From Bacilli bacterium (GTDB lineage: Bacteria; Bacillota_I; Bacilli_A; RFN20; DUOF01), in assembly GCA_045128835.1 (NCBI GenBank), contig JBGVRX010000002.1, forward strand, positions 44,145-108,144: a DNA stretch of 64,000 nucleotides, in the 5' to 3' direction. This document shows positions 11,424 through 55,636 of this stretch, one piece after another (position 1 is the stretch's first letter; each line of letters begins with the position of its first letter). The notes below the pieces were generated by a model. That model ran no database searches and was not told where the DNA came from. It saw nothing but the letters and a program-made list of their open reading frames with translations. The translations under genes and the position numbers were made by a program.

Positions 11424-11681
11424 GTGAAAAAAGTTCCATTAAGAAAATGTGTTGCCACTAATGAAAGACTTCCTAAAGGAGAACTTGTTAGAATTGTAAA
11501 AAATAACGAAGGTAAAGTTTTCGTTGATTTAACAGGTAAAGCTAATGGAAGAGGGGCATACTTAAAAAAGAGTAATGAGGCAATTGATGTTGCTATCAAG
11601 AAAAATAGTTTAGGTAGAGCCTTGGAATGCACAATTGACCAAGAAGTTTATGATGAACTTAGGAAATTAGTTAGTGAATAA
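11424..11681 (+). CDS. ylxR: YlxR family (DUF448) RNA-binding protein
   Basis: PLRKC.....P...L.R motif; GTG start; canonical position after nusA. Confidence 0.8.
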   Translation: MKKVPLRKCVATNERLPKGELVRIVKNNEGKVFVDLTGKANGRGAYLKKSNEAIDVAIKKNSLGRALECTIDQEVYDELRKLVSE

Positions 11682-12000
11682 AGCGTTAAGTACCTTAGGT
11701 ATTTGTGCTTGTGCAAGAAAAATAAGTTATGGCGAGACACTTTTAAAAGACATCAAAGGTAAAAAAGTGCATTTGGTTGTAGTAGCAAGTGATTCAAGTG
11801 ATAACTCAAAAAAGAAGATTATTGATAAGTGCAACTTTTATGGTTGTGAATATGTAGTTTGTTTTGATAAAGAGAGCATTACTAAGTCAATTGGAAGAGT
11901 TGACTTAGTAAGTTCTGTTGGAATTAAAGATTATAATTTAGTTAAAAAATTTAAAGAAAATATAGAAAGGGAAGGTGGTTCTAATGAAGAAAAACAATAA
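11674..12000 (+). CDS. ylxQ: L7Ae/YlxQ family ribosomal-protein-like RNA-binding protein
   Basis: GK..LVVVASD motif; located between ylxR and infB. Confidence 0.75.
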
Positions 12001-27510: not shown

Positions 27511-29880
27511 TTATAATGTTTCAATATATTTTTTGATGTTAGATAAATTAACGATATTTTGAACTTCGTTGTTTTTGATAACTACTAGTGTAGGAGCTTG
27601 TTTTACTCCGTATTTTTTAGTTAATTCAACTTTTTCTTCAGCATCTACGAAGTTGAATTTAGTAGATGATTTATCTAATAATTTTTCAGCCATTCTACAG
27701 TTAGGACAAGTTTTTGTTCCAAATAACATTATTTCATCTTCACTTACAGAAGTTGTAGTTGAAGTTCTTGAAGTTGCTGTAGTAGTTGTAGTTGTTTTAG
27801 GTGAAGAAGAACAACTTAAGTCGTAATTCTTTCTGTTTTTGTATTCTTGAGTCTTACCATCGTTCCAGTTTTTAACAGGACGGTAGTAACCAGTGATTCT
27901 ACTGTAGATTTCAGTTTCAGCACCACAGTCAGGACATGTAGATACTTCACCGTTAATATATCCATGAGTTCTACAAATTGAATATACTGGAGATAATGTA
28001 TAGTAAGGTAATTTGTAGTTTTCAGAAATCTTTCTTACTAGGTTAGCAGCAGATTTCCAATCTTCTAATCTTTCACCTAAGAATGCATGGAATACAGTAC
28101 CAGAAGTATAAAGAGTTTGTAATTCATCTTGAATATCTAATGCTGCGAACATATCATCAGTGTATCCTACTGGAAGGTGAGAACTGTTTGTATAATAAGG
28201 TGTTTCTCCTTCTTTTGCAGCAGTGATTAAATCAGGATATAAACTCTTATCTTTCTTAGCAAAACGATAAGTAGTAGATTCAGCAGGAGTAGCTTCTAAG
28301 TTATATAGATCACCATATTCTTCTTGATAATCTGACAATTTTTCTCTCATGAAGTTAAGAACGTTCTTAGTGAATTCTTGTGCTTCTGTTTCTGTTAAAT
28401 CTTTCTTAATCCATTTAGCATTTAAACATGCTTCATTCATACCAACTAATCCGATTGTAGAGAAGTGGTTATTGAATGTACCTAAGTATCTTCTTGTATA
28501 TGGATATAATCCTTCATTTAATAATTTTGTAATAACATTACGTTTGATTTTTAAACTTCTTGCAGCTAAATTCATCATGTTTTCTAATCTTTCATAGAAT
28601 TCTTTTTCTGTTTTAGCTAAGTATGCGATACGAGGAATATTGATAGTTACAACACCAATTGATCCTGTTGATTCACCACTACCGAAGAATCCTCCTGATT
28701 TCTTTCTAAGTTCTCTTAAGTCAAGTCTTAAACGGCAGCACATACTACGAACATCACTTGGTTCCATATCACTATTGATATAGTTAGAGAAGTAAGGTGT
28801 TCCGTATTTTGCAGTCATTTCAAATAATAATTTGTTGTTTTCTGTTTCAGACCAGTCGAAGTCTTTTGTGATTGAATAAGTTGGGATTGGGTATTGGAAT
28901 CCTCTTCCGTTAGCATCTCCTTCGATCATTGTTTCGATGAATGCTTTGTTTACCATATCCATTTCTTTTTGACAATCTTTATATTTGAAGTCAACTTCTT
29001 TACCTCCAACGATACAGTTAAGTTCTGCTAAATCGTTTGGAACAGTCCAGTCTAATGTGATGTTTGTAAATGGTGCTTGAGTACCCCATCTACTTGGTGT
29101 ATTAACACCATATATAAATGATTGAATACATTGTTTAGTTTGTTTGTATGTTAAATTATCGATTTTTACAAATGGTGCTAAATAAGTATCGAATGATGAG
29201 AATGCTTGAGCTCCAGCCCATTCATTTTGCATGATACCTAAGAAGTTAACCATTTGGTTACATAAAGTTGATAGGTGTTTAGCAGGAGATGATGTAATCT
29301 TTCCAGGAATGCCTCCTAAACCTTCTTGGATTAATTGTTTTAAACTCCATCCAGCACAATAACCTGTTAACATTGAAAGGTCATGTAAGTGGATGTCACA
29401 GTTACGATGAGCATCAGCAATAGCGTTATCATAAACTTCACTTAACCAGTAATTAGCAGTAATAGCTCCAGAGTTTCCTAAAATTAATCCGCCTACTGAA
29501 TAAGTAACAGTAGAGTTTTCTTTAACTCTCCAGTCAGTAACATTTAAGTAACTATTCACTACATCTTTATAATCTAATACTGTAGATTTCATGTTACGCA
29601 TTTTATCGTGTAATTTACGGTATAGGATGTAAGCTTTAGCGACATCTCCATAACCAGCACTAATTAAAACGCTTTCAACGCTATCTTGGATGTCTTCAAC
29701 ATCTACGATATTATCTTTTACTTTGCTTTCGAAATTAGCAGTAACTTTTAATGCTAAGAAATCAATGATGTTTTCATCATATACTTTATTCTCAGCTTCA
29801 AATGCCTTAGTTATTGCTTCTGTGATTTTTTTGATTTCAAATGAAACTATTTTTCCTTCTCTTTTTCTTACTTTAAACAT
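27511..29880 (-). CDS. nrdD: anaerobic ribonucleoside-triphosphate reductase (class III) with a C-terminal glutaredoxin/NrdH-like domain attached via a poly-Thr linker
   Basis: N-terminal ATP-cone and an IHLHDL active-site region. Zn-ribbon CPDCG plus the glycyl-radical motif SRITGYY. Then PKTTTTTTATSRTSTTTS, followed by a thioredoxin-fold domain with CPNC. Confidence 0.9.
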   Translation of the reverse strand: MFKVRKREGKIVSFEIKKITEAITKAFEAENKVYDENIIDFLALKVTANFESKVKDNIVDVEDIQDSVESVLISAGYGDVAKAYILYRKLHDKMRNMKSTVLDYKDVVNSYLNVTDWRVKENSTVTYSVGGLILGNSGAITANYWLSEVYDNAIADAHRNCDIHLHDLSMLTGYCAGWSLKQLIQEGLGGIPGKITSSPAKHLSTLCNQMVNFLGIMQNEWAGAQAFSSFDTYLAPFVKIDNLTYKQTKQCIQSFIYGVNTPSRWGTQAPFTNITLDWTVPNDLAELNCIVGGKEVDFKYKDCQKEMDMVNKAFIETMIEGDANGRGFQYPIPTYSITKDFDWSETENNKLLFEMTAKYGTPYFSNYINSDMEPSDVRSMCCRLRLDLRELRKKSGGFFGSGESTGSIGVVTINIPRIAYLAKTEKEFYERLENMMNLAARSLKIKRNVITKLLNEGLYPYTRRYLGTFNNHFSTIGLVGMNEACLNAKWIKKDLTETEAQEFTKNVLNFMREKLSDYQEEYGDLYNLEATPAESTTYRFAKKDKSLYPDLITAAKEGETPYYTNSSHLPVGYTDDMFAALDIQDELQTLYTSGTVFHAFLGERLEDWKSAANLVRKISENYKLPYYTLSPVYSICRTHGYINGEVSTCPDCGAETEIYSRITGYYRPVKNWNDGKTQEYKNRKNYDLSCSSSPKTTTTTTATSRTSTTTSVSEDEIMLFGTKTCPNCRMAEKLLDKSSTKFNFVDAEEKVELTKKYGVKQAPTLVVIKNNEVQNIVNLSNIKKYIETL

Positions 29881-29884
29881 AAAC

Positions 29885-30613
29885 TTACCTCTTTCCTCTC
29901 CCCCTAATTGTTACATTAGGATATCTTCTTTCTAATTTTTTTTCGATTTCTAGTAATTCAGCATCGCTAAACCCACTTAATCCTTTTTGTAAAACTGTAT
30001 CGCAATCTCGATAATTTTGAATGTAGAATTTAACGCTTGGACCTAGATAGTCTAGAATTTCTTCAATATTTTCGAAACTATGCAACTCTTTTACTACAGT
30101 TGTTCTAAACTCATAGTCGATATTAGATGATTTAAGAACATCAATACTTTCTTTTATATCATCTAAACTTACTTTTGCTCCGGAAGTAACATCATACTTT
30201 GAAAAAGTGTTTTTTACATCCATTGCTACATAATCGATCAGGTTACAATCAATTAGTTTCTTCAATATTTTTGGTTTGCTACCATTAGTGTCCAATTTAA
30301 CTTTATAACCTTTCTCTTTTATTTTTCTAATGAACAGTTCAATATCTTTCTGTAATAGTGGTTCCCCTCCACTAATACATACTCCATCAATCAACCCCTT
30401 TCGTTTATCTAAATAATCAAATAAAACCTGCTCATCAATTTTATTTGAGTCATTAGCACCTTTAATCAAGCCACTGTTATGACAGAACGGACATTTAAAG
30501 TTACACCCTTGAGTGAAAATTATACATGCCGTATGTCCAGGAAAATCAACCAATGTTAATTTTTGAAAACCACTAATTTCCATAATTGTATTTGTTTCCT
30601 CCAAATTTAACAA
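29885..30613 (-). CDS. nrdG: anaerobic RNR activating enzyme (radical SAM)
   Basis: CNFKCPFCHN radical-SAM cluster motif, 242 aa. Confidence 0.85.
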   Translation of the reverse strand: MLNLEETNTIMEISGFQKLTLVDFPGHTACIIFTQGCNFKCPFCHNSGLIKGANDSNKIDEQVLFDYLDKRKGLIDGVCISGGEPLLQKDIELFIRKIKEKGYKVKLDTNGSKPKILKKLIDCNLIDYVAMDVKNTFSKYDVTSGAKVSLDDIKESIDVLKSSNIDYEFRTTVVKELHSFENIEEILDYLGPSVKFYIQNYRDCDTVLQKGLSGFSDAELLEIEKKLERRYPNVTIRGRGKR

Positions 30614-32549
30614 AACCTACATTGTTCTCTATTAAATGATTAATAATGTTTAATATATCTTTTTGTTTACTACTCTTAGATAAATTTACTATTACTAAAT
30701 TTCCTCCTGTTAGTAGTGATTGATATTTTCCAATGTAGTAGAAGTCTTCTTCTTTGTTTGATTTGAATTCGAATAAACTATCGATTCTTGAATAATGTTC
30801 TTTATCGGTGATTTTCTTTCTGATTCCATATATTGATTTATCTAATTCCATTAATTTCTTTAATGGACGACGTTTGCTTGTTTCGCTGACAACGAAATTC
30901 ATTTTGGTTTCTTTTGTATATTTTATGCACTGTTCTTTTACGTAATTTATAATACTTACTAATAATTCTTTTTGTTTTATTTCATCTTTTTCTAAATTTA
31001 AGACACATTCGCTTAGACCTGCAAGTTCTAAGTTTAAAACACCTTTTTTGATAATCTTTCTGATCTTTTGACTGCTTTCTAACTTTTCGTCATCAATGAT
31101 ATTTCCGTTAAATAATATTTGGTAATTATCTTTACTCTTATCACCAATGATTTCAAAGATATTAACTAAGCAGTTTTTAGCCATTTCTAACCAACCATCA
31201 AGAGCTAGGTAGAAATCTTTGATATCTTTATTTTCGTACTTAAACCCTAGTCTACCCATATTTACTGAAACAGAAGCTACAATCATTCTTCCAGTAGATT
31301 CGTTTTCTTCATAAACATAATTTTCATAAACTCGGTGTCCATTACTGAAGTATTCGGTATTTTCTAAATTGTAACTAGTATTTATATTAGCTAAAGCAAT
31401 GTTTTTTTCTTCAATAATTAAACCGCTTACTTTATTTAATAAATCTTTATTGGTATCTTTACTTATTTTATAGATGGTAGTTATATTTTCTAGTCTATCC
31501 ATCTTTTCTAAGATAGATAAGTAAGTTTCATTTATTAATGTTCCATCTAATGAAGTATTTCCTCCTAAACTAATTGAATACTTTTTGTTTTCTAAGTAAT
31601 TGTTGTTTAGATTGTTTAGCAGTACTTCAAGTGAATTAACTAGTAGACTTTTTATGTATTTCATACTGTCACTATAAGCTAAATCGAATATTTCTTCTGT
31701 TTTTTTGTTAAGAATAAAGTTATCAAATAAAGTTTTCTCAAAATAAATACTGTTTTGTTTATCGATGATTTCTTCGATTCTTTTGATATTTATATATTCT
31801 AAATATCCAGTTAAATCTAAGTATTTATTTAAATTGCTTTTTAATTCTTCTTTAAATTGTTCGCTAACATAAGGTAGTAACAAATGATCTAATGCGTCTA
31901 TGCATATTTCACCATCAATTTCTAGTTTTACATTTAAGGCATTAAATATTAAGTCATTTGGGAAACTCTTGTTAATGTCTTTTGTAAAAATTGGGTGAGT
32001 TGATGATAACTTACCTAGATTGAAGTAATCTAAGTTATGTATGTATAAATTTCCTTCTTCGTGAGATCTAACATACTTGTTATCTAAAACAAAAGCTTTT
32101 GTATATTCACATGATATGGTTTTTCCAAAATCCAAAAGGATTTCATTTGGGGTACTATCTTTTTTGAATTCACCAATACGTTCAATTGCTTTTGCAAATT
32201 TGTGTTGTTGTCTTAAACCAAATACTTTTCTAGAAGTTGCTCTTCTAATTCTGTAATCACTAAATGCCTCATAAACATCGGTGAAATTGTTTTCTTTTAA
32301 TTTTGTTTCTATAATATCTTGTATATCTTCAACATTGATAGTCTTTCTATCTATGTAAGTGTTGTTGATGAAATTTAGAACGTCTGCGTAAACTTTATTA
32401 ATTCCAGGTTCAGAATTAATAGGTCTAACTTGGTCGAAGGCTTTTTTGATTGCTACAGCAATTTTGGTGCTGTTGAACTCAACTCTTTGACCGCTTCTTT
32501 TGACGACAACTAAATCTTTTAAGATATTTTTTATGTTCTCCCCAGCCAT
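30573..32549 (-). CDS. NrdD-like paralog: ATP-cone plus truncated/degenerate class III RNR core lacking the catalytic Cys and the glycyl-radical domain
   Basis: N-terminal ATP-cone (VVKRSGQRVEFNSTKI). LYIHNLDYFNLGKL aligns to the NrdD IHLHDL..GYCAGW region but the catalytic Cys is replaced. No RxxGY and no Zn ribbon. Overlaps nrdG by 41 nt. Confidence 0.6.
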   Translation of the reverse strand: MAGENIKNILKDLVVVKRSGQRVEFNSTKIAVAIKKAFDQVRPINSEPGINKVYADVLNFINNTYIDRKTINVEDIQDIIETKLKENNFTDVYEAFSDYRIRRATSRKVFGLRQQHKFAKAIERIGEFKKDSTPNEILLDFGKTISCEYTKAFVLDNKYVRSHEEGNLYIHNLDYFNLGKLSSTHPIFTKDINKSFPNDLIFNALNVKLEIDGEICIDALDHLLLPYVSEQFKEELKSNLNKYLDLTGYLEYINIKRIEEIIDKQNSIYFEKTLFDNFILNKKTEEIFDLAYSDSMKYIKSLLVNSLEVLLNNLNNNYLENKKYSISLGGNTSLDGTLINETYLSILEKMDRLENITTIYKISKDTNKDLLNKVSGLIIEEKNIALANINTSYNLENTEYFSNGHRVYENYVYEENESTGRMIVASVSVNMGRLGFKYENKDIKDFYLALDGWLEMAKNCLVNIFEIIGDKSKDNYQILFNGNIIDDEKLESSQKIRKIIKKGVLNLELAGLSECVLNLEKDEIKQKELLVSIINYVKEQCIKYTKETKMNFVVSETSKRRPLKKLMELDKSIYGIRKKITDKEHYSRIDSLFEFKSNKEEDFYYIGKYQSLLTGGNLVIVNLSKSSKQKDILNIINHLIENNVGFVKFGGNKYNYGN

Positions 32550-41109: not shown

Positions 41110-41346
41110 GTGATGGATATGGAAAAGATAATTGAAGAAGTAACCGAGAAAATTATGAATTTAGAAATAGGTAATATTTTTACTTTGTCTTCATATTTTA
41201 GTGAGTATTCTTTAACAAGTAATGAAAAATTAAAGATTTCATTAAAAATTATTAATGATTTAAGAAAAAATGGATTAATAAAGGAAGTTAATGAAGAAGA
41301 AACTGTAGGTTTGATCTACAATATTCCATTCGTCATTATTGATTAA
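41110..41346 (+). CDS. hypothetical small protein
   Basis: 78-aa ORF. Confidence 0.3.
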   Translation: MMDMEKIIEEVTEKIMNLEIGNIFTLSSYFSEYSLTSNEKLKISLKIINDLRKNGLIKEVNEEETVGLIYNIPFVIID

Positions 41347-46298: not shown

Positions 46299-47984
46299 AT
46301 GAAAAGGCGTGGCTTTATACGAGTAGTATTAGTTTTGTTATTTGCATTAGTTATATCGGCTTGTTCGTTGCAGAAGGATCAAAATATTAAATCAATTGCA
46401 ATTAATGAGAAATCAATCCCTGAGTTTGTTTTAATAGGTGAATTTGATAAAGCAGGAATTGAAGCTTTAGTTACCTATGAAGATGGCACTCAAGAGACAA
46501 TTGAAGTAAATTCAAATCTTTTAAAAGATGCTTATCAAGAGCAAATAAATAAAGCTGGTGAATATGAGTTTGAAATTTTATTTAGAGGACAATCAGCTAA
46601 ATTTAAAGTTAAAATAGTAGATGCAGAAGGAGCACATGTTGTCAAATTCTTTAATGGTTTTAACGAACTAGTTTCAATGCAACTTGTAAAACATGGAGAA
46701 GCGGCTAAGGCTCCAGAAGGAGCAGCGCATCTTTTAAAGGGTTATGAGTTTGTTGGATGGGATAGAAAGTTTGAAAATGTTAGAGAAGATATTGAGGTTT
46801 ATGGTATATACGCTAAGGTTGATGAAGCAGAAAATGAGCAAGAAGAAAATATGGAATTTAGAAATGAATTGTTTGCTGCAGTAGAAAATATGAGAGATGG
46901 CAATGTAAATGTTTTAGAAGTATGGGAATCAGTAGCTAAACGTTTTGAAAAGAGTTTAGTTTATGGTGATAATCATGAGTTAATGCATGTAGTAAAGAAG
47001 GAAATAAATGATGATAGAGAAGTAATATATCATAAGTATTCTAAGCAACTTAGTGAAACTGCAAATATTAAATATTATTATGAAAAGTTTGATGAGGATG
47101 GATTCTATACTAAAGTAGAAACATTTGTAGATGAATTTGATCAATATGATATATATGCAGCAGTAAAGAAAATAGTATCTTCTACAGATATGTTAAATTA
47201 CTCTGTAATGCATACAGCAGAGGAGAAGATTTATAAGTTAGAAGCCGTAATTCCAAATCGTGGAGATGGAAATTATAAAAGCGAACAAATCGAAATCTTA
47301 TTTAATGAAAATCAAATTATATCATTAAAGAGATTCTTGAATTATCCTAATACAACAGGAATTATTGAAAAAGTATTATCAACATCACAATACTTTGAAA
47401 TTAATGTAGAAGAGCCTGTAGTATTTCCAAAAGATATTGATTTAGGAAAGATAGTAGGAAGCGTATTCAATCATGATGTAGGAATTTATGTATATGAACT
47501 TAGAGATGAATTTGTGTTAGTAAAAACAATTAAAAATGATGCTGATAATAGAGCAGCTAGAATTATTGAAGGAAATGAAATGAACTTCATGTGGGACAAG
47601 GATGTTGCTACTTACTATACTAAAAAAGTTCAAGATGTAGGAATGGAGATTGTAAGAGTTTTTAAAACAACTAATTCGGAAGAAAGATATGGAAATATGT
47701 TCTACTATGAATGGAAGAACTTAGCTAACTATCAACCATCAATTAGTTTAGATGAACAAGGAAGAATTGAAGTGATGTTTAGGGTTGGAGAAACTAGTAG
47801 TTCAAGAGCTCATAATGTTGTATTCATTATAGAAAATAATAGATTAGTAGAATTTGAAAAACATCATTATGAGGCAAATGAAAAAGTTGTAACAGAGAGA
47901 ATGGAATTACATTATGCAGAGACAGAGGTAGAAGTTCCTCAAGAATACATTAATAGTGAACCAAATGCTCATGTGGAACAATAA
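46299..47984 (+). CDS. lipoprotein of unknown function
   Basis: Signal peptide with lipobox ISAC. 561 aa. Confidence 0.5.
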   Translation: MKRRGFIRVVLVLLFALVISACSLQKDQNIKSIAINEKSIPEFVLIGEFDKAGIEALVTYEDGTQETIEVNSNLLKDAYQEQINKAGEYEFEILFRGQSAKFKVKIVDAEGAHVVKFFNGFNELVSMQLVKHGEAAKAPEGAAHLLKGYEFVGWDRKFENVREDIEVYGIYAKVDEAENEQEENMEFRNELFAAVENMRDGNVNVLEVWESVAKRFEKSLVYGDNHELMHVVKKEINDDREVIYHKYSKQLSETANIKYYYEKFDEDGFYTKVETFVDEFDQYDIYAAVKKIVSSTDMLNYSVMHTAEEKIYKLEAVIPNRGDGNYKSEQIEILFNENQIISLKRFLNYPNTTGIIEKVLSTSQYFEINVEEPVVFPKDIDLGKIVGSVFNHDVGIYVYELRDEFVLVKTIKNDADNRAARIIEGNEMNFMWDKDVATYYTKKVQDVGMEIVRVFKTTNSEERYGNMFYYEWKNLANYQPSISLDEQGRIEVMFRVGETSSSRAHNVVFIIENNRLVEFEKHHYEANEKVVTERMELHYAETEVEVPQEYINSEPNAHVEQ

Positions 47985-49138: not shown

Positions 49139-49277
49139 ATAATACCTCTTTTAATCTTTACATATTTTTGATTTTAAAGACATTATTATTAAAAGTCAAT
49201 TAATGAAGGTGTTAAAAACTAAATAAATACTATATATCATTAAAGAGTAATGATATAATTAAATTAAGGTGATTAAA

Positions 49278-50492
49278 ATGATTAAGTATGAAACACTCAA
49301 AAAAATTAGTGATGAAATAGATGATTTAGAGTCTAGTATTTATGATTTAGAACGCGAAAAAAGATACTTAGAAAATGATAAAAGAGAGGCTGAAGGCGTA
49401 TCTAACATAGGTATGGCTACAATGGCTGTTAATATGACTGTTGGACTTTCTTCAAAAATGGTAGCAGATAATAAGGTAAGAGAACTTGAAAGTAAAATTG
49501 ATAAAATAAAAGATAAAATATATGAAACTGAAAAACTTTTATCAAAAAGAAAAACAGAATATCGTGATGCTTTAAAGGAATGGGAAGAAGAAAGAAAAGA
49601 GGCGGAACTTGTAATAGATGGTGATAATATCTATATAAAAGGTGATAAAGATAAAAAAGATGTTTTAGAGTCTGTGAAGAGTGTTCGTGAAAATAGAAAA
49701 AATAGATATAATGAGATTAAAAAAAATAAAGATGTTATGGACTATGTAGATGCTAGAATAGAACTTATTCAAGAATTTGAAGATAGAGGGTTCTGTCATA
49801 AAACAGATACTTTTAAATCTGATTTTTATAAAGATTTTTTGAGAATTGCAAATTATGTTAGTTTCTCTTGTCAAGATGAAATAGAGGGCTATTATGTTCC
49901 AAAATCAGGTTTTGATAAAGAACTAATTACTGTTTTGAAAAATAGAATTGCTATTTGCGAAGATAACATTGCAAATCAAAAGAAAACATATGAAAGATTA
50001 ACTCCTGGATTTTTTGGAAATTTGTTTAAGGCTGCATATAACAAAAAGTATATGAAGGTTAAATCTTTAGCGGAACACGAAATCTCTTGTCAAAAACTAA
50101 AAATTGCGGAATATGAAAGAGAAATAAAGGCTGTTTTAGACTTTAAAGAGAAATATCCTCAAGTTTATGATGAAAAACTTAATAAATTAATTAAGGACTA
50201 TGAAAATAAGAGAAATACATTAGATGAAAAAGGTGAGTTACATCTTGCTAGAGAGATTGTAGAAATTGTAAAAGGATTAAAGGAAAATCGTTGTATAGTT
50301 CATAAAGGTGTTTTCTTGCCTTATGAAGTAAAACAATATTTACTTGAGAATAATTTGTCGTTATCAAAAGAAAATCTTGTTGCATGTATGGATAAAATGG
50401 ATCAATTAGATAATGAGATAAAGAAGGATGTAAAAAATATTTTGGAAGATGAAGGTGGATATACACCTTTAAATCAGGTAAAGAAAAGATAG
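49278..50492 (+). CDS. hypothetical coiled-coil protein
   Basis: Lys/Glu-rich heptad-like sequence. RBS aaggtga precedes the ATG at 49278. Confidence 0.45.
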   Translation: MIKYETLKKISDEIDDLESSIYDLEREKRYLENDKREAEGVSNIGMATMAVNMTVGLSSKMVADNKVRELESKIDKIKDKIYETEKLLSKRKTEYRDALKEWEEERKEAELVIDGDNIYIKGDKDKKDVLESVKSVRENRKNRYNEIKKNKDVMDYVDARIELIQEFEDRGFCHKTDTFKSDFYKDFLRIANYVSFSCQDEIEGYYVPKSGFDKELITVLKNRIAICEDNIANQKKTYERLTPGFFGNLFKAAYNKKYMKVKSLAEHEISCQKLKIAEYEREIKAVLDFKEKYPQVYDEKLNKLIKDYENKRNTLDEKGELHLAREIVEIVKGLKENRCIVHKGVFLPYEVKQYLLENNLSLSKENLVACMDKMDQLDNEIKKDVKNILEDEGGYTPLNQVKKR

Positions 50493-50504: not shown

Positions 50505-50533
50505 TTGCAAAAAAAATAAAGATATGATATAAT
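50505..50533 (+). promoter_or_regulatory. Near-consensus sigma-A promoter (-35 TTGCAA, 17 nt, -10 TATAAT) driving the large ncRNA locus
   Basis: ttgcaa-N17-tataat. No ORF lies downstream for >600 nt. Confidence 0.55.
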
Positions 50534-50539
50534 ACCAAA

Positions 50540-51125
50540 CTGTGGAGGTGCAGTATTCTAGTCAGTTTTGCTGCTATGAAGACGTATTAAGACGTTTGAG
50601 GGCACATCTATGAAGTTCTTGGTGCTTGCTTTGGTTGCCCAAACTGGGGTGGGTGCTGAGAGTTAAGATTTTTGGGCGCACTATAACGGCATATAGTATA
50701 CGACCCAACTATCGCGGAGACGCAGATGGGTGTAGATTCGTTTACACTCCCTGCGAAGAACCTGCATTGCAGTAACATGTGTGCAGTGTAGCCTGGTTTG
50801 AGTGAATAACGAGGGATTACATGTATGACAAATATAAATACTTGGCCAGTTTTATATTCTGATTTTGTATGAAATCTTATTTGCAAAACATCCTAGTAGC
50901 ATGTCAAAGCTGTCAAGGAAAACTTCTAGACTGTTAAATTTATTTAGATGTTTTAAGGATTATAGTGTGTACTAAGTGGCGATTCGGTGTGTAAACTTGC
51001 TTAATAGGAAACTGCTCTACTGGTAACGGTAAGCGTGAGTTTGAGAAATTCGACCGAACCTAAGACATAAGGTTTACTTAATTCATTACCTTCACATAAC
51101 GCAGTGCATTCGTGCTGCGTTTTAC
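50540..51125 (+). ncRNA. Large (~585 nt) structured noncoding RNA candidate; OLE-like (ornate large extremophilic) RNA or related large ornate RNA
   Basis: 650 nt without any credible ORF in an otherwise gene-dense region. GC content is visibly elevated (~43-45%) relative to the flanking ~28%. Many local helices (ctgcattgcag, gtgtagattcgtttacac, cgcag...ctgcg). Own strong promoter. 3' hairpin aacgcag-N10-ctgcgtt. A DxxxD 4-TM protein gene lies immediately downstream, like oapA. Confidence 0.5.
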
Positions 51126-51126
51126 T

Positions 51127-51154
51127 TTGTAAATATTTAAGATTAGTATATAAT
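51127..51154 (+). promoter_or_regulatory. Candidate internal promoter upstream of the oapA-like gene (-35 TTGTAA, 16 nt, -10 TATAAT)
   Basis: ttgtaa-N16-tataat. Confidence 0.4.
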
Positions 51155-51189
51155 GTAATTAACAATTAAGTAATGAGAGGATATGAAAA

Positions 51190-51807
51190 ATGGAAAAAGA
51201 TGGATCGAAAAAGAAAAAGAATAAAAATGTGTTTACGGAATATTTTAGGTGGCCATTAATAGTTTTGGCAGTTTCTTTATTTTTATCATTTTCTTTTAGT
51301 TTTCTTAGTGAATTAGCATTGAGTAATGCTAGTTTAGTAGTAGCTATTTTAGTTATTGTGTTCTTTATGTTTGTATCAATAATAACTGACGCTATTGGTG
51401 TTGCAGTTACTGCAGCAGTGGAAGTGCCTTTTAGAGCAATGGCTGCTAAAAAAGTAAAAGGTGCGAAAGAAAGTATTATTTTAATTAATAATGCAGATAA
51501 GGTTGCAAGTATTATTGCAGATATCTTAGGTGATATTTGTGGTATCTTATCAGGAGCCGCAGGTGCAGTTGTTACAGCTAAACTTATTGAAGGAGTAACA
51601 GACTCAATGCAACTTGTAGTAATAGCATCTATGGTTAGTGCAGTTATCGCAGGTGTAATTATCTTTGGTAAAGCCATGGGTAAAAAAGTAGCTTTGGATA
51701 ATTGCGATAAAATAGTGCTTATGATAGGTAAAATAGTTTATATATTTACTTTTGGTAAATTATCACTAAAGAATAAAAATCCAAACAAACAACAAGGGTC
51801 TAATTAA
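51190..51807 (+). CDS. small 4-TM membrane protein with DxxxD motifs in TM helices, OapA-like (OLE-associated protein A)
   Basis: 205 aa; 4 predicted TM helices. TM2 has ITDAIGV. TM3 has ADILGDICG, a DxxxD motif. Located directly 3' of the large ncRNA. Confidence 0.5.
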   Translation: MEKDGSKKKKNKNVFTEYFRWPLIVLAVSLFLSFSFSFLSELALSNASLVVAILVIVFFMFVSIITDAIGVAVTAAVEVPFRAMAAKKVKGAKESIILINNADKVASIIADILGDICGILSGAAGAVVTAKLIEGVTDSMQLVVIASMVSAVIAGVIIFGKAMGKKVALDNCDKIVLMIGKIVYIFTFGKLSLKNKNPNKQQGSN

Positions 51808-51885
51808 GTTAGGCTCTTTTTTATTTAGTAAAATGAAAGAAAGTGTGATATACTTTTAATAGTTAATTAGTAAAGGGGATAAGTC

Positions 51886-52443
51886 ATGTATTATAGAATA
51901 AGTTGTGATGCTGAAAATTACAGAAATTATATTTTAAAAAAAGAAGAAGTTAAAGAAGGCGACGAACTTTATCGTGACAAGTTTGATGGCAGTTCTCAAA
52001 AAGATAATTATGAAACACAAACTTTTGTAATGACAAGAAAAAGAGAAGTAAGTTTTCCAGTAGCAGATATATTTTTTAGTGATCTTCCTATTTGTAGTGA
52101 AAGAGCAAAAGAAGTTATAGAAAGTATTTGTAATGAGGGAGAGATAGAATTTTTACCATGTGAAGTAGAAGCAACAGAAGGTAATTATTATATTTTAAAT
52201 GTACTGGGTGCAGAAGATTGCGTTGATTATGATAATTCGGATTTTGTTAGATTTTCTAGTGGTAGAATAATGTTTTTTAATCATATAAAGTTTAATAAGA
52301 AAATAGAAAGGCACTTTTTTAGAATTACAGATTTAATTAATGGTTTTTATTTTATAAGTGAAGAAACTAAAGAAATTTTAGAAAAAGCTGATTTGAAAGG
52401 TTTAGTTTTTGATAATAGTTTATTTATAGAAAAGAGTAACTAG
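51886..52443 (+). CDS. hypothetical protein (possible immunity/accessory protein)
   Basis: 185-aa soluble ORF between the ncRNA/oapA locus and the RiPP cluster. Confidence 0.4.
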   Translation: MYYRISCDAENYRNYILKKEEVKEGDELYRDKFDGSSQKDNYETQTFVMTRKREVSFPVADIFFSDLPICSERAKEVIESICNEGEIEFLPCEVEATEGNYYILNVLGAEDCVDYDNSDFVRFSSGRIMFFNHIKFNKKIERHFFRITDLINGFYFISEETKEILEKADLKGLVFDNSLFIEKSN

Positions 52444-52522
52444 TGTTTTAGAGGCACAAACCTTAGATATATCTTGAATAAAGGGCACTTTTGTGGTAGC
52501 ATTAGTGCATAGAGGTGATAAC

Positions 52523-52609
52523 ATGGATATTAAAATTGAAGATGTTTTAGACTTAGAAGTTGCATTAGTAGACAACTGTGGCTGCGCTAATGGCGGAGAC
52601 AAGTGTTAA
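52523..52609 (+). CDS. RiPP precursor peptide, 28 aa: MDIKIEDVLDLEVALVDNCGCANGGDKC (acidic leader plus Cys/Gly-rich core)
   Basis: ATG at 52523 is preceded by RBS gaggtga (52513-52519). Stop TAA at 52607. Not in the ORF track (too short). Directly upstream of two rSAM/SPASM genes. Confidence 0.6.
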   Translation: MDIKIEDVLDLEVALVDNCGCANGGDKC

Positions 52610-53115: not shown

Positions 53116-54315
53116 ATGTATAGAGGCTATTTAATTGATTATAGAAAAGAAAACGATGATTTATATATCTTAAAAAATAAAAAGAGCGGGGTTTATTATT
53201 ACTCTAACTATGTTGCTACTAGAGTTTATGAATTATTAGATAAAAGAGTTAGTGTTAAAGAAATAGTAGAAACTTTAGCTAAAGAATATAATGCTCCTAT
53301 TTATTTTATGGAGAAGATGGTTTTAATGGCTATTTCTCAAATTCAAAGTAAAGAAGATGCTGTACATTGGAAACAAGAGTCTAAATTCCCTTTAAGAGTA
53401 TCTTGGAGATTAACAGATCGATGTAACTTAAAGTGCTTACATTGTTACGCTACTTGTGAAAGTGAAGCAAAACAAAAAGAATTACCTTTAGAAACAATAA
53501 AATCAATCGTAGATAAATTAGAAGAAGCAAATATTTTTGAAATCTCTTTAACAGGAGGAGAAATATTTGTTAGACATGATTTAAAAGAAATAATTGAGTA
53601 TATTAATTCTAAGAATATTACTTTAGCTTTATTTACTAACGCCACATTAGTTTTAAGTAACTATGAGTGGTTAAAAGAATGTCATATTAGAAGATTTAAT
53701 ATAAGTTTAGATGGATTAGAAGAAGAACACGATTTATTAAGAGGAAAAGGTAATTTTAAAAGAACAGTAGATGCGATAAAACTTTTACAAAAAGATGGGG
53801 CAAGAATAGTAATAAATTGCGTTATTAACTCTTTAAATGTTCATAGGCTAGTAGAAATATTGCATTTCTTTGTAGATAATAAATTAGAATTCCAATTTTC
53901 ATTGATGACTCCAATTGGAAGAGGGGCAGATAACATTGATATCGTTCCTAAAAAAGAAGTTTATATGGAAGCAGTTAAGAAGTTACAAGAAGAATATGAA
54001 AAACTTAAAATAGCGGGATTTATTCATAATGCTTATACTGGAGAGGATTTGCAAATTGATGAAGATGGAGAAACTACTGTTAGTGAAGATAAATGGGTAT
54101 GTAATGCTGGTACTACTAAGTTTGATATAGATGTTAATGGTGATGTCTATTGTTGTCCATTTAGTAAGAGTAGTTTTGTAGGTAATATTGTAGATAAAAC
54201 AGTAAAAGAGTTATGGGAAAATGAGAGTAGATTTAATTTTATTAATTTCACTAAGACATATAATGGAAGATTCTGTAAACCAATAGGAGATACAATGAAT
54301 GAACAAAATAAGTAA
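53116..54315 (+). CDS. radical SAM/SPASM-domain peptide-modifying enzyme with an N-terminal RRE/PqqD-like extension
   Basis: CNLKCLHCY (CxxxCxxC). SPASM region CNAGTTKFDIDVNGDVYCCP...C. The ~95-aa N-terminal region contains a VSVKEIVETLAKEY..P wHTH-like segment. Confidence 0.85.
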   Translation: MYRGYLIDYRKENDDLYILKNKKSGVYYYSNYVATRVYELLDKRVSVKEIVETLAKEYNAPIYFMEKMVLMAISQIQSKEDAVHWKQESKFPLRVSWRLTDRCNLKCLHCYATCESEAKQKELPLETIKSIVDKLEEANIFEISLTGGEIFVRHDLKEIIEYINSKNITLALFTNATLVLSNYEWLKECHIRRFNISLDGLEEEHDLLRGKGNFKRTVDAIKLLQKDGARIVINCVINSLNVHRLVEILHFFVDNKLEFQFSLMTPIGRGADNIDIVPKKEVYMEAVKKLQEEYEKLKIAGFIHNAYTGEDLQIDEDGETTVSEDKWVCNAGTTKFDIDVNGDVYCCPFSKSSFVGNIVDKTVKELWENESRFNFINFTKTYNGRFCKPIGDTMNEQNK

Positions 54316-55636
54316 TCAAGTATTAAAACTGTCACAAAATTTAAAATTTTTAGAAGTTAATGAAAAAGTATCTATTTGTTACAATAAAAATGCTTTTAAA
54401 CCAGTATTATTACCTAATTCAGTTAGAGAAAACTATTTAAATGGTCTTAGAGAAATAAATAATCCGGATGAAAATATTGTAAAGATGTTTACTAATAATT
54501 ATATTGGCTTTTTTGATAAGGAATTAACTAAAGAAGAAATATATAGTAAGTTAAAACAAGATTATGATAAGAAAGAATCTACTTTAAATGTTAGATTTAT
54601 TCCAAGTTATAATTGCGATAAGAATTGCTCTTATTGTTTAATTCAAAATATAAGAGGTCAGATGAAAGAGTCTTTTGATCTTAGTTATTTAGATAATTTA
54701 AAAAATCTTGTAGATATTTATAAGAAGAGTACTCCTAATTTAAATAAAGTTAGCGCTACTATTATTGGAGGAGAACCTACTTTAGATAAGAACTGGGATA
54801 TTACTAAAAAGTTCATCAATGAGCTAAATAAGTATTTTGATAAAAAAGAACATGTTCTAGTTACAAATGGGTATGGAGTTAATGAATCATTATTAAAAGA
54901 GTTTAAGGATATGGGCGGTAAATCTGTTTACTTATCATATGATTTAAGAGGTAATGTTATAGATGATAGTGAGCCGGAATCTAAGTCTAATTTTGAAAAA
55001 TTTAAGAGTTTGTGCCTTTTAGTAGTTAATAATGGTGTTTCTTTGACAGTAGATTTTAAATGTAATAAAGATACTAAAATAAATGAAACCGTTAAGTCTT
55101 TCTTGGATAATCTTATCTCTTTAGATTCTTCAATAAATATTGTCGCATCTAAAATAGTATCTCAAAAAGAATATGATGTTTTAGAAAGCCCTCAATGTCA
55201 AAGGTATGAACTTGTAGATTTAAAAGAGGAAGATATATTGCCTGTATATTATGAGTTTATAAATTTATATCCTTATAATTTTTCTTATCCTAGACAATTT
55301 GAAATAATGATTTATAGATGCTCTACTGTATCAATGAAATCATTTGTAGTATTCCCAAATGGAAAAGTATCTTTATGCGGTAAGTTATATTCCTCAAATC
55401 CCGATAATATACCTTATATTTATGATTTTAAAACAAGTGAATTTAACTTTGAGTTAACTGAATCGTTTTGTAAGACAGTGTTAGATGATGAAGAATGTAA
55501 AGAGTGCGAGTATTCACTTATTTGTGGAGGCAAGTGTCCTTTTAAAAAAGGAAAATGTGATAAAGAAAAAATAAATGTAGAGTTATTACTAGAAATTTAT
55601 AAAAGCAATATAAAAAGACAATTAAATAAAAAGTAA
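54299..55636 (+). CDS. second radical SAM/SPASM-domain enzyme, translationally coupled to the first
   Basis: YNCDKNCSYC radical-SAM motif. C-terminal SPASM cysteines CKECEYSLICGGKCPFKKGKC. Overlaps the upstream gene by 17 nt. Confidence 0.85.
   Translation: MNKISNQVLKLSQNLKFLEVNEKVSICYNKNAFKPVLLPNSVRENYLNGLREINNPDENIVKMFTNNYIGFFDKELTKEEIYSKLKQDYDKKESTLNVRFIPSYNCDKNCSYCLIQNIRGQMKESFDLSYLDNLKNLVDIYKKSTPNLNKVSATIIGGEPTLDKNWDITKKFINELNKYFDKKEHVLVTNGYGVNESLLKEFKDMGGKSVYLSYDLRGNVIDDSEPESKSNFEKFKSLCLLVVNNGVSLTVDFKCNKDTKINETVKSFLDNLISLDSSINIVASKIVSQKEYDVLESPQCQRYELVDLKEEDILPVYYEFINLYPYNFSYPRQFEIMIYRCSTVSMKSFVVFPNGKVSLCGKLYSSNPDNIPYIYDFKTSEFNFELTESFCKTVLDDEECKECEYSLICGGKCPFKKGKCDKEKINVELLLEIYKSNIKRQLNKK

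Follow-up and report, generated by a model that had tools for sequence, protein, structure and literature searches.

A compact ole-oapA locus in an uncultured gut Bacillota bacterium

Introduction

Of the bacterial non-coding RNAs that still lack a known function, OLE RNA is, to our knowledge, among the largest. Its obligatory membrane partner is OapA. The OapA family has been in the literature since 2006-2011, and lineages represented by gut metagenome-assembled genomes (MAGs) have already been included in large surveys. The OapA of Clostridium botulinum is CLB_RS09010.

In Halalkalibacterium halodurans, the OLE ribonucleoprotein (RNP) is needed to tolerate cold, ethanol, and a modest excess of Mg2+. 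OapA of this species binds OLE RNA (ratio at least 2:1) and directs the RNA to the membrane, according to the account of Block et al. 2011 cited in PMC12265935. The protein has four predicted transmembrane (TM) helices and a conserved positive cluster on its cytoplasmic face (PMC12265935). It also carries a distinctive DxxxD motif that CNNM domains do not have (PMC11332333), and the double substitution D100A/D104A (PM1) makes the H. halodurans protein dominant-negative (PMC9723947). Among matches to Pfam family PF01595 (CNNM), OapA proteins rank as a group just behind the MpfA proteins (PMC11332333). In the literature, the distributions of MpfA-type proteins and of the OLE RNP are anticorrelated, and their Mg2+-sensitivity phenotypes overlap. 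OapA proteins are further described as lacking a proline that CNNM domains conserve.

Here we describe an OLE RNA and the membrane protein gene that follows it within a 64-kb stretch of DNA (hereafter the window) from an uncultured gut bacterium, and we compare this locus with the described OapA and MpfA systems.

OLE RNA and the adjacent gene

OLE RNA (RF01071) was the sole Rfam family found across the whole window, located on the plus strand at 50529..51108 (369 bits; E = 8e-105 or about 1e-105; model positions 1-616 of 616). It is 580 nt long; its internal stems are shortened, and 18 nt are deleted compared with the Rfam consensus. The oapA coding sequence (51190..51807, plus strand) comprises 205 codons and a stop codon, and its ATG at 51190 lies 81 nt past OLE on the same strand. 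This agrees with the first-pass annotation, which had described an ORF of this extent and had placed it immediately downstream of a non-coding RNA.

Related loci were collected by a genome scan with a 32-sequence alignment. The best 80 loci all came from gut MAGs, and the nearest genomes among them are uncultured and labelled as Bacilli, Clostridia, Christensenella, or Ca. Onthoplasma. An nhmmer search with the window OLE found OLE upstream of the oapA homologue and on the same strand in 73 of these best 80 loci. Five of the seven OLE-negative loci end at a contig end and have less than 250 nt of upstream DNA, so that OLE was present in 73 of the 75 testable loci. Rfam confirmed OLE in every positive locus that was checked, as well as its absence in L007 and L047. 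Among the relatives, oapA follows OLE at distances between ~0 and 2.1 kb (median close to 100 nt). The OapA-family genes of L007 (Christensenella sp. UBA6406) and L047 have full 2.5-kb flanks and no OLE on either strand; in L007 two tRNA genes lie upstream, and the protein has a long acidic, Cys-rich N-terminal extension.

The OLE RNAs of the nearest genomes scored 345-388 bits on RF01071. A shortened class of OLE RNA, 'variant 1', has been described with scores of 310-390 bits on the model of that paper, in reduced-genome gut clades that are largely without OapB and OapC (PMC11332333). The window OLE appears consistent with this class of gut-clade OLE RNAs, the correspondence in bit scores being only indicative because the covariance models differ.

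Relationship to known OapA proteins

A profile search reached an OapA homologue of C. tetani (P0341) with 39% identity over 165 residues (E = 9e-34), whose gene starts 15 nt after an OLE RNA that scores 555 bits. Look-ups of clusters together with a second profile search led to C. argentinense, C. senegalense, and C. tetani, and did not extend to Halalkalibacterium. D111/D115 of the window protein would correspond to D100/D104 of H. halodurans OapA (BH2780 / WP_010898928.1). NCBIfam contained no family for the window protein and returned only a meaningless 12-bit match to GroES.

The window protein thus shares with OapA its position directly downstream of OLE, a length of ~200 residues, four TM helices, a DxxxD motif in TM3, and a basic cytoplasmic cluster. 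It further shares a sub-threshold similarity to CNNM, a CorB-like predicted fold, and the lack of CBS and CorC domains. Together with the homology to the C. tetani protein, these features bear out the OapA-like identity proposed in the first-pass annotation, and the window ORF very probably encodes an OapA orthologue. It differs from the C. tetani system in its OLE RNA (580 nt and 369 bits, compared with 611 nt and 555 bits) and in the spacer between OLE and oapA (81 nt here, including a hairpin and a promoter-like insert, compared with 15 nt in C. tetani). It differs from known OapA proteins in its host, an uncultured gut Bacillota bacterium with 29% GC, and in its Lys-rich N-terminus.

Topology and conserved residues

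TM helices were assigned from hydropathy and from the helices of two AlphaFold2 models (first model, pLDDT 73.8; second model, pLDDT 78.8 and pTM 0.69). Hydropathy and both models agreed on long helices at residues 14-45, 49-75, 102-132, and 139-170, which upheld the earlier description of a four-TM protein of this size, and also on a short loop helix (79-86) and a C-terminal amphipathic helix (172-191).

TM1 (~residues 21-45; 51250..51324) follows a Lys-rich N-terminus (KKKKNKN), predicted to be cytoplasmic, and includes the nearly invariant W21. TM2 (residues 49-75; 51334..51414) contains ITDAIGV from residue 65, with the invariant D67 encoded at 51388-51390. The predicted cytoplasmic loop that comes next (51415..51501) contains the basic cluster PFRAMAAKKVKGAKE, in which K88 and K93 are kept as K/R. 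TM3 (~residues 105-132; 51502..51585) carries ADILGDICGILSG, with ADILGDICG from residue 110 and the DxxxD motif (D111 and D115) at 51520-51534. TM4 (~residues 139-160; 51604..51669) is followed by the invariant K161 and K165, and the C-terminal amphipathic/hydrophobic helix (51703..51762) falls inside the stretch that aligns with the CNNM profile (54-187). Because the helix positions agree between methods, D67 can be assigned to TM2 and DxxxD to TM3, as had been claimed for the two motifs from the sequence.

The only DxxxD in the window protein is D111-ILG-D115. With eight Asp in 205 residues, ~0.3 such motifs per protein are expected by chance, and the motif is therefore not significant on its own; it is meaningful because it is invariant in the homologues. 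Conservation was counted in 151 representatives of 50%-identity clusters, with the aligned ones as denominators. D67 was found in 150/150 representatives, D111 in 149/149, G114 in 148/149, D115 in 147/149 (the other two having Glu), G122 in 149/149, K161 in 146/148, and K165 in 148/148. D111 and D115 were also invariant in alignments A1 and A4, and only ~10 residues were invariant across the 85 sequences of A4. D67 is thus a third invariant membrane aspartate beside DxxxD.

The TM2-TM3 loop has six basic residues, and R82, K87, K88, K90, and K93 lie in its residues 76-104. K88 was K or R in 145/151 representatives (125 K and 20 R) and K93 in 126 (110 K and 16 R of 151), so that K88, K93, K161, and K165 were all kept as K/R in 126-148 of the 151. 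The TM3-TM4 loop is acidic, and a K-rich segment follows TM4. By the positive-inside rule, this distribution of charges fits an N-in/C-in four-TM topology in which the TM2-TM3 loop would be cytoplasmic, and the basic loop is presumed to be the RNA-facing surface. D67 is located 8 residues from the cytoplasmic end of TM2; counted from the cytoplasmic start of that helix, D111/D115 are 6-10 residues into TM3. These helix positions place all three aspartates in the cytoplasmic half of TM2/TM3, adjoining the basic loop.

Relation to CNNM proteins and other membrane protein families

The window protein matched PF01595 at residues 54-187 with 20.7 bits, below the gathering score of 28.4, and C. tetani OapA was likewise sub-threshold (24.2 bits). 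Pfam found no CBS or CorC_HlyC domain in the window protein, which ends 14 residues past its last helix. The top six PDB matches in Foldseek were all MtCorB (7m1t, 7m1u) or the CorC TM domain (7cfg, 7cff), with probabilities of 0.96-1.00; the fold match was moderate for both models (TM 0.39-0.57; Foldseek E 5e-3 to 0.4), and the next PDB match had a probability of <= 0.18. In sequence searches of the PDB, the single protein found no relative and the 85-member profile found no chain at E <= 10; no OapA structure has therefore been deposited, and the CNNM similarity is undetectable by sequence against the PDB. The Pfam and fold results match the published traits of OapA (PMC11332333).

The predicted helical TM fold moderately resembles that of MpfA/CorB/CorC proteins (7M1T, 7M1U, 7CFG), with ~155-170 aligned columns. 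Identity in the structural alignments was only 14-17%, and the window OapA differs in having an extra N-terminal TM helix and a DxxxD motif, the latter reported absent from CNNM, and in lacking the CBS pair and CorC_HlyC.

The weak Pfam match, and the fact that CorB and CorC were the only structural matches, would also be expected of a truncated or stand-alone CNNM/DUF21 Mg2+/Co2+ transporter of the CorB/MpfA type that happens to lie next to OLE. Several homologues do carry precomputed PF01595 labels and JGI names, and automatic annotations among them include 'Mg2+/Co2+ transporter CorB' and 'CBS domain containing-hemolysin-like protein'. We consider such a transporter very improbable, however, given the score below the cutoff, the missing CBS and CorC_HlyC domains, and the additional N-terminal helix. 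Furthermore, the DxxxD motif is invariant in this family but does not occur in CNNM domains (PMC11332333), and OLE linkage in 73 of the 75 testable loci means that the adjacency is not a coincidence. It should be noted that this alternative concerns family membership only, and that a CNNM-like transport mechanism stays compatible with OapA. A Pfam scan of 38 further window ORFs turned up no MpfA-type protein.

A holin-like or other unrelated small membrane protein had been named in the first-pass annotation as the competing outcome of a database search. The small size and the several TM helices would suit a holin, the neighbours include an Imm11 immunity protein and a cluster resembling those for ribosomally made, modified peptides, and one distant family member (P0193) has a sub-threshold match to Phage_holin_5_2 (18.6 bits, cutoff 29.2). 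However, Pfam gave no holin family at E <= 1 for the window protein, and PHROGs at E <= 0.01 gave only a generic 'membrane protein' (17.7 bits, E = 0.006). The surrounding window carries chromosomal housekeeping genes (rplS, the nusA-infB operon, pnp, nrdD), and the homology to OapA is strong, leaving an unrelated protein of this kind with barely any credibility beside an OapA orthologue.

Coding evidence

A ribosome-binding site, GAGAGGA, is located at 51175-51181 on the plus strand, 8 nt before the ATG of oapA, and is aligned with GAAAGG in L002-L004. Six independent metagenome contigs carry the identical protein, flanked by the same genes. At E <= 1e-3, searches returned 862 homologues in a 90%-clustered database and 1178 representatives in a 50%-clustered library, 323 of the latter at E <= 1e-30. 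The dN/dS values of oapA against the orthologues in L001, L002, and L004 were 0.15, 0.15, and 0.09, respectively, which indicates a conserved gene under purifying selection. A chance open frame in AT-rich DNA, or a true gene in the overlapping 172-aa antisense ORF (51159..51677), is exceedingly improbable in view of the hundreds of homologues with conserved motifs, the dN/dS of 0.09-0.15 in the plus frame, the ribosome-binding site and terminator, and the calling of the gene on independent assemblies. The antisense ORF was rejected as a low-complexity shadow frame of an Ala/Ile/Val-rich gene.

Expression signals

A promoter-like site for OLE, TTGCAA-17-TATAAT with TG before the -10 element, was found at 50505..50533 on the plus strand (pattern scan only). 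Judged by this pattern, transcripts would begin near 50540, immediately ahead of the conserved 5' sequence of OLE, GGAGGUGCAGUAUUCUAGUCAG; the conserved core of OLE starts at about 50544 in the Rfam alignment. Such sites are no more numerous in this region than chance predicts (see below).

At the other end of OLE, a terminator-like hairpin of 10 bp with a GNRA-like UUCG loop region, followed by UUUUACUUU, was predicted at 51098..51125 on the plus strand (-13.7 kcal/mol, z -2.7). It is largely outside the Rfam OLE model. In L001-L006 the corresponding position also holds a hairpin and T-run, with stems that differ in sequence, and this retention of structure argues for a conserved terminator or 3'-end element after OLE. 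The hairpin at 51098-51125 may thus serve OLE specifically, as a terminator or 3'-end element placed between the two genes.

The promoter-like pattern TTGTAA-16-TATAAT at 51127..51154 on the plus strand (10 of 12 matches) had been taken in the first-pass annotation as a sign that oapA can also be expressed independently. The pattern is present as described. TATAAT is kept in the window, L002, L003, and L004, but the -35 element is not kept, and the ~35-nt segment that bears the pattern is common only to the window and L002-L004 and absent in L001, L005, and L006. In those three loci the ribosome-binding site comes directly after the U-run, and oapA must therefore depend on read-through. Between 50300 and 52100, seven promoter-like sites were observed, compared with 8.0 ± 2.6 in shuffled sequences. 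The count is no higher than in the shuffles, and independent expression of oapA is therefore possible but unproven.

A second intrinsic-terminator-like hairpin with a T-run (51794..51824, plus strand; -10.5 kcal/mol, z -3.6) overlaps the stop codon of oapA. From these predicted signals, we infer that the OLE promoter would start transcription, that most transcripts would probably end at the conserved hairpin and U-run after OLE, and that oapA would be expressed by read-through, from its own weak promoter within the sub-lineage's 35-nt insert, or by both. The terminator at 51794-51824 would then close a two-gene ole-oapA unit.

Genomic context

The window is ordinary chromosome of an anaerobe with 29% GC, and its genes include rplS, rimP-nusA-ylxR-ylxQ-infB-rbfA, an Hsp20 gene, pnp, two nrdD-like genes, ABC permeases, and an amino-acid permease. 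The two NrdD-family genes (anaerobic ribonucleotide reductase), each with an ATP-cone domain, are arranged in tandem on the minus strand (27511-29880 and 30573-32549), and the second is much more divergent (101 vs 638 bits).

In the canonical locus of C. tetani the gene order is nusB-folD-xseA-xseB-ispA-OLE-oapA-dxs-tlyA-nadK-argR-recN. None of nusB, folD, xseA, xseB, ispA, dxs, tlyA, nadK, argR, or recN was found in the 64-kb window. Across 85 related loci, ispA or dxs was kept in none, xseA in 14, argR in 27, and recN in 22. With the C. tetani neighbours missing, ole-oapA has therefore become detached from the ancestral isoprenoid/DNA-repair operon in this lineage.

The upstream flank of ole-oapA consists of a HAD hydrolase gene on the minus strand and a gene for an uncharacterised, Lys/Glu-rich 407-aa protein (49269-50492, plus strand), which is kept beside OLE on the contigs with identical OapA. 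Neither this ORF nor a 561-aa ORF at 46299-47984 (plus strand) matched a significant Pfam or PHROG family, the latter having one weak PHROG match only (E = 0.0024). The downstream flank holds an Imm11 immunity-family gene and a radical-SAM/SPASM cluster, all on the plus strand. The Imm11 gene (51886-52443) is directly downstream of oapA and is followed by a small ORF (52493-52609) that encodes ...MDIKIEDVLDLEVALVDNCGCANGGDKC and has a Cys-rich C-terminus, a 150-aa ORF, a PqqD-radical SAM-SPASM enzyme (53116-54315), and a second radical SAM protein (54299-55636). The segment 51886-55636 looks like a RiPP (sacti- or ranthipeptide-like) cluster.

A search for homologues of oapB and oapC had been suggested for the genome, and we carried it out within the 64-kb window. 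No oapB was found, with no KOW-type candidate among the scanned small ORFs; a 78-aa ORF at 41110-41343 had no PDB or Pfam relative. The only L7Ae-family protein of the window (11674-11997, plus strand), a K-turn-binding protein, is an OapC paralogue. This candidate for OapC/YbxF was rejected as YlxQ because of its synteny (rimP-nusA-ylxR-X-infB-rbfA) and because BH2414 and B. subtilis YlxQ are its top matches in the PDB.

With a shortened class of OLE RNA and with OapB/OapC largely missing from the clades that carry it, the complex may therefore differ from that of H. halodurans. A tentative and rather doubtful extension is that this reduced-genome gut lineage has a self-contained ole-oapA cassette, perhaps without OapB/OapC, as a natural minimal OLE RNP, with the phosphodiesterase fusions described below as a clue to its function. 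Such a cassette may have an OLE promoter of its own, an internal terminator that is conserved in structure, and perhaps a second promoter.

Phosphodiesterase fusions in a sister clade

A sister clade has fusion proteins in which the OapA TM domain retains DxxGD and is followed, at its C-terminal side, by a ~350-aa PF01663 domain (60-66 bits), i.e., a type I phosphodiesterase/nucleotide pyrophosphatase. The fusion loci are L017 (= L088 3001-4755, P0122), L015, L033, L046, and L047 (2498-4276), together with L045, in which the two parts are adjacent and in another frame. OLE is located upstream in five of these six loci, L047 being the one without it. We found no mention of OapA-PF01663 fusions in the OLE literature searched.

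Proposed mechanism and significance

By analogy with the H. halodurans work, the window OapA would dimerise in the membrane, bind OLE RNA cooperatively via its cytoplasmic basic face, and tether OLE at the membrane or help to insert it. OapA is most likely a CNNM-like module for the transport or sensing of divalent cations. Cation handling would fall to the acidic cluster in the inner-leaflet half of TM2/TM3, and OLE RNA would replace the cytosolic CBS/CorC regulatory domains of MpfA-type proteins. The Breaker laboratory has reportedly proposed such a substitution of OLE RNA for the CBS/CorC regulatory domains.

The protein described here is an unannotated copy of an already known family in an uncultured gut bacterium, and its identification as OapA adds no new biology. 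The window does hold a complete ole-oapA unit; public sources either leave its protein unannotated or mislabel it as 'CorB' or 'hemolysin-like'. As a compact and divergent OLE/OapA pair, with 39% identity to the clostridial protein, it could help to define the minimal conserved core of the system, which would be of modest value. The phosphodiesterase fusions in the related loci may be a more useful lead; if true, they could hint at nucleotide or phosphodiester processing at the place where MpfA carries its nucleotide-binding CBS domains.
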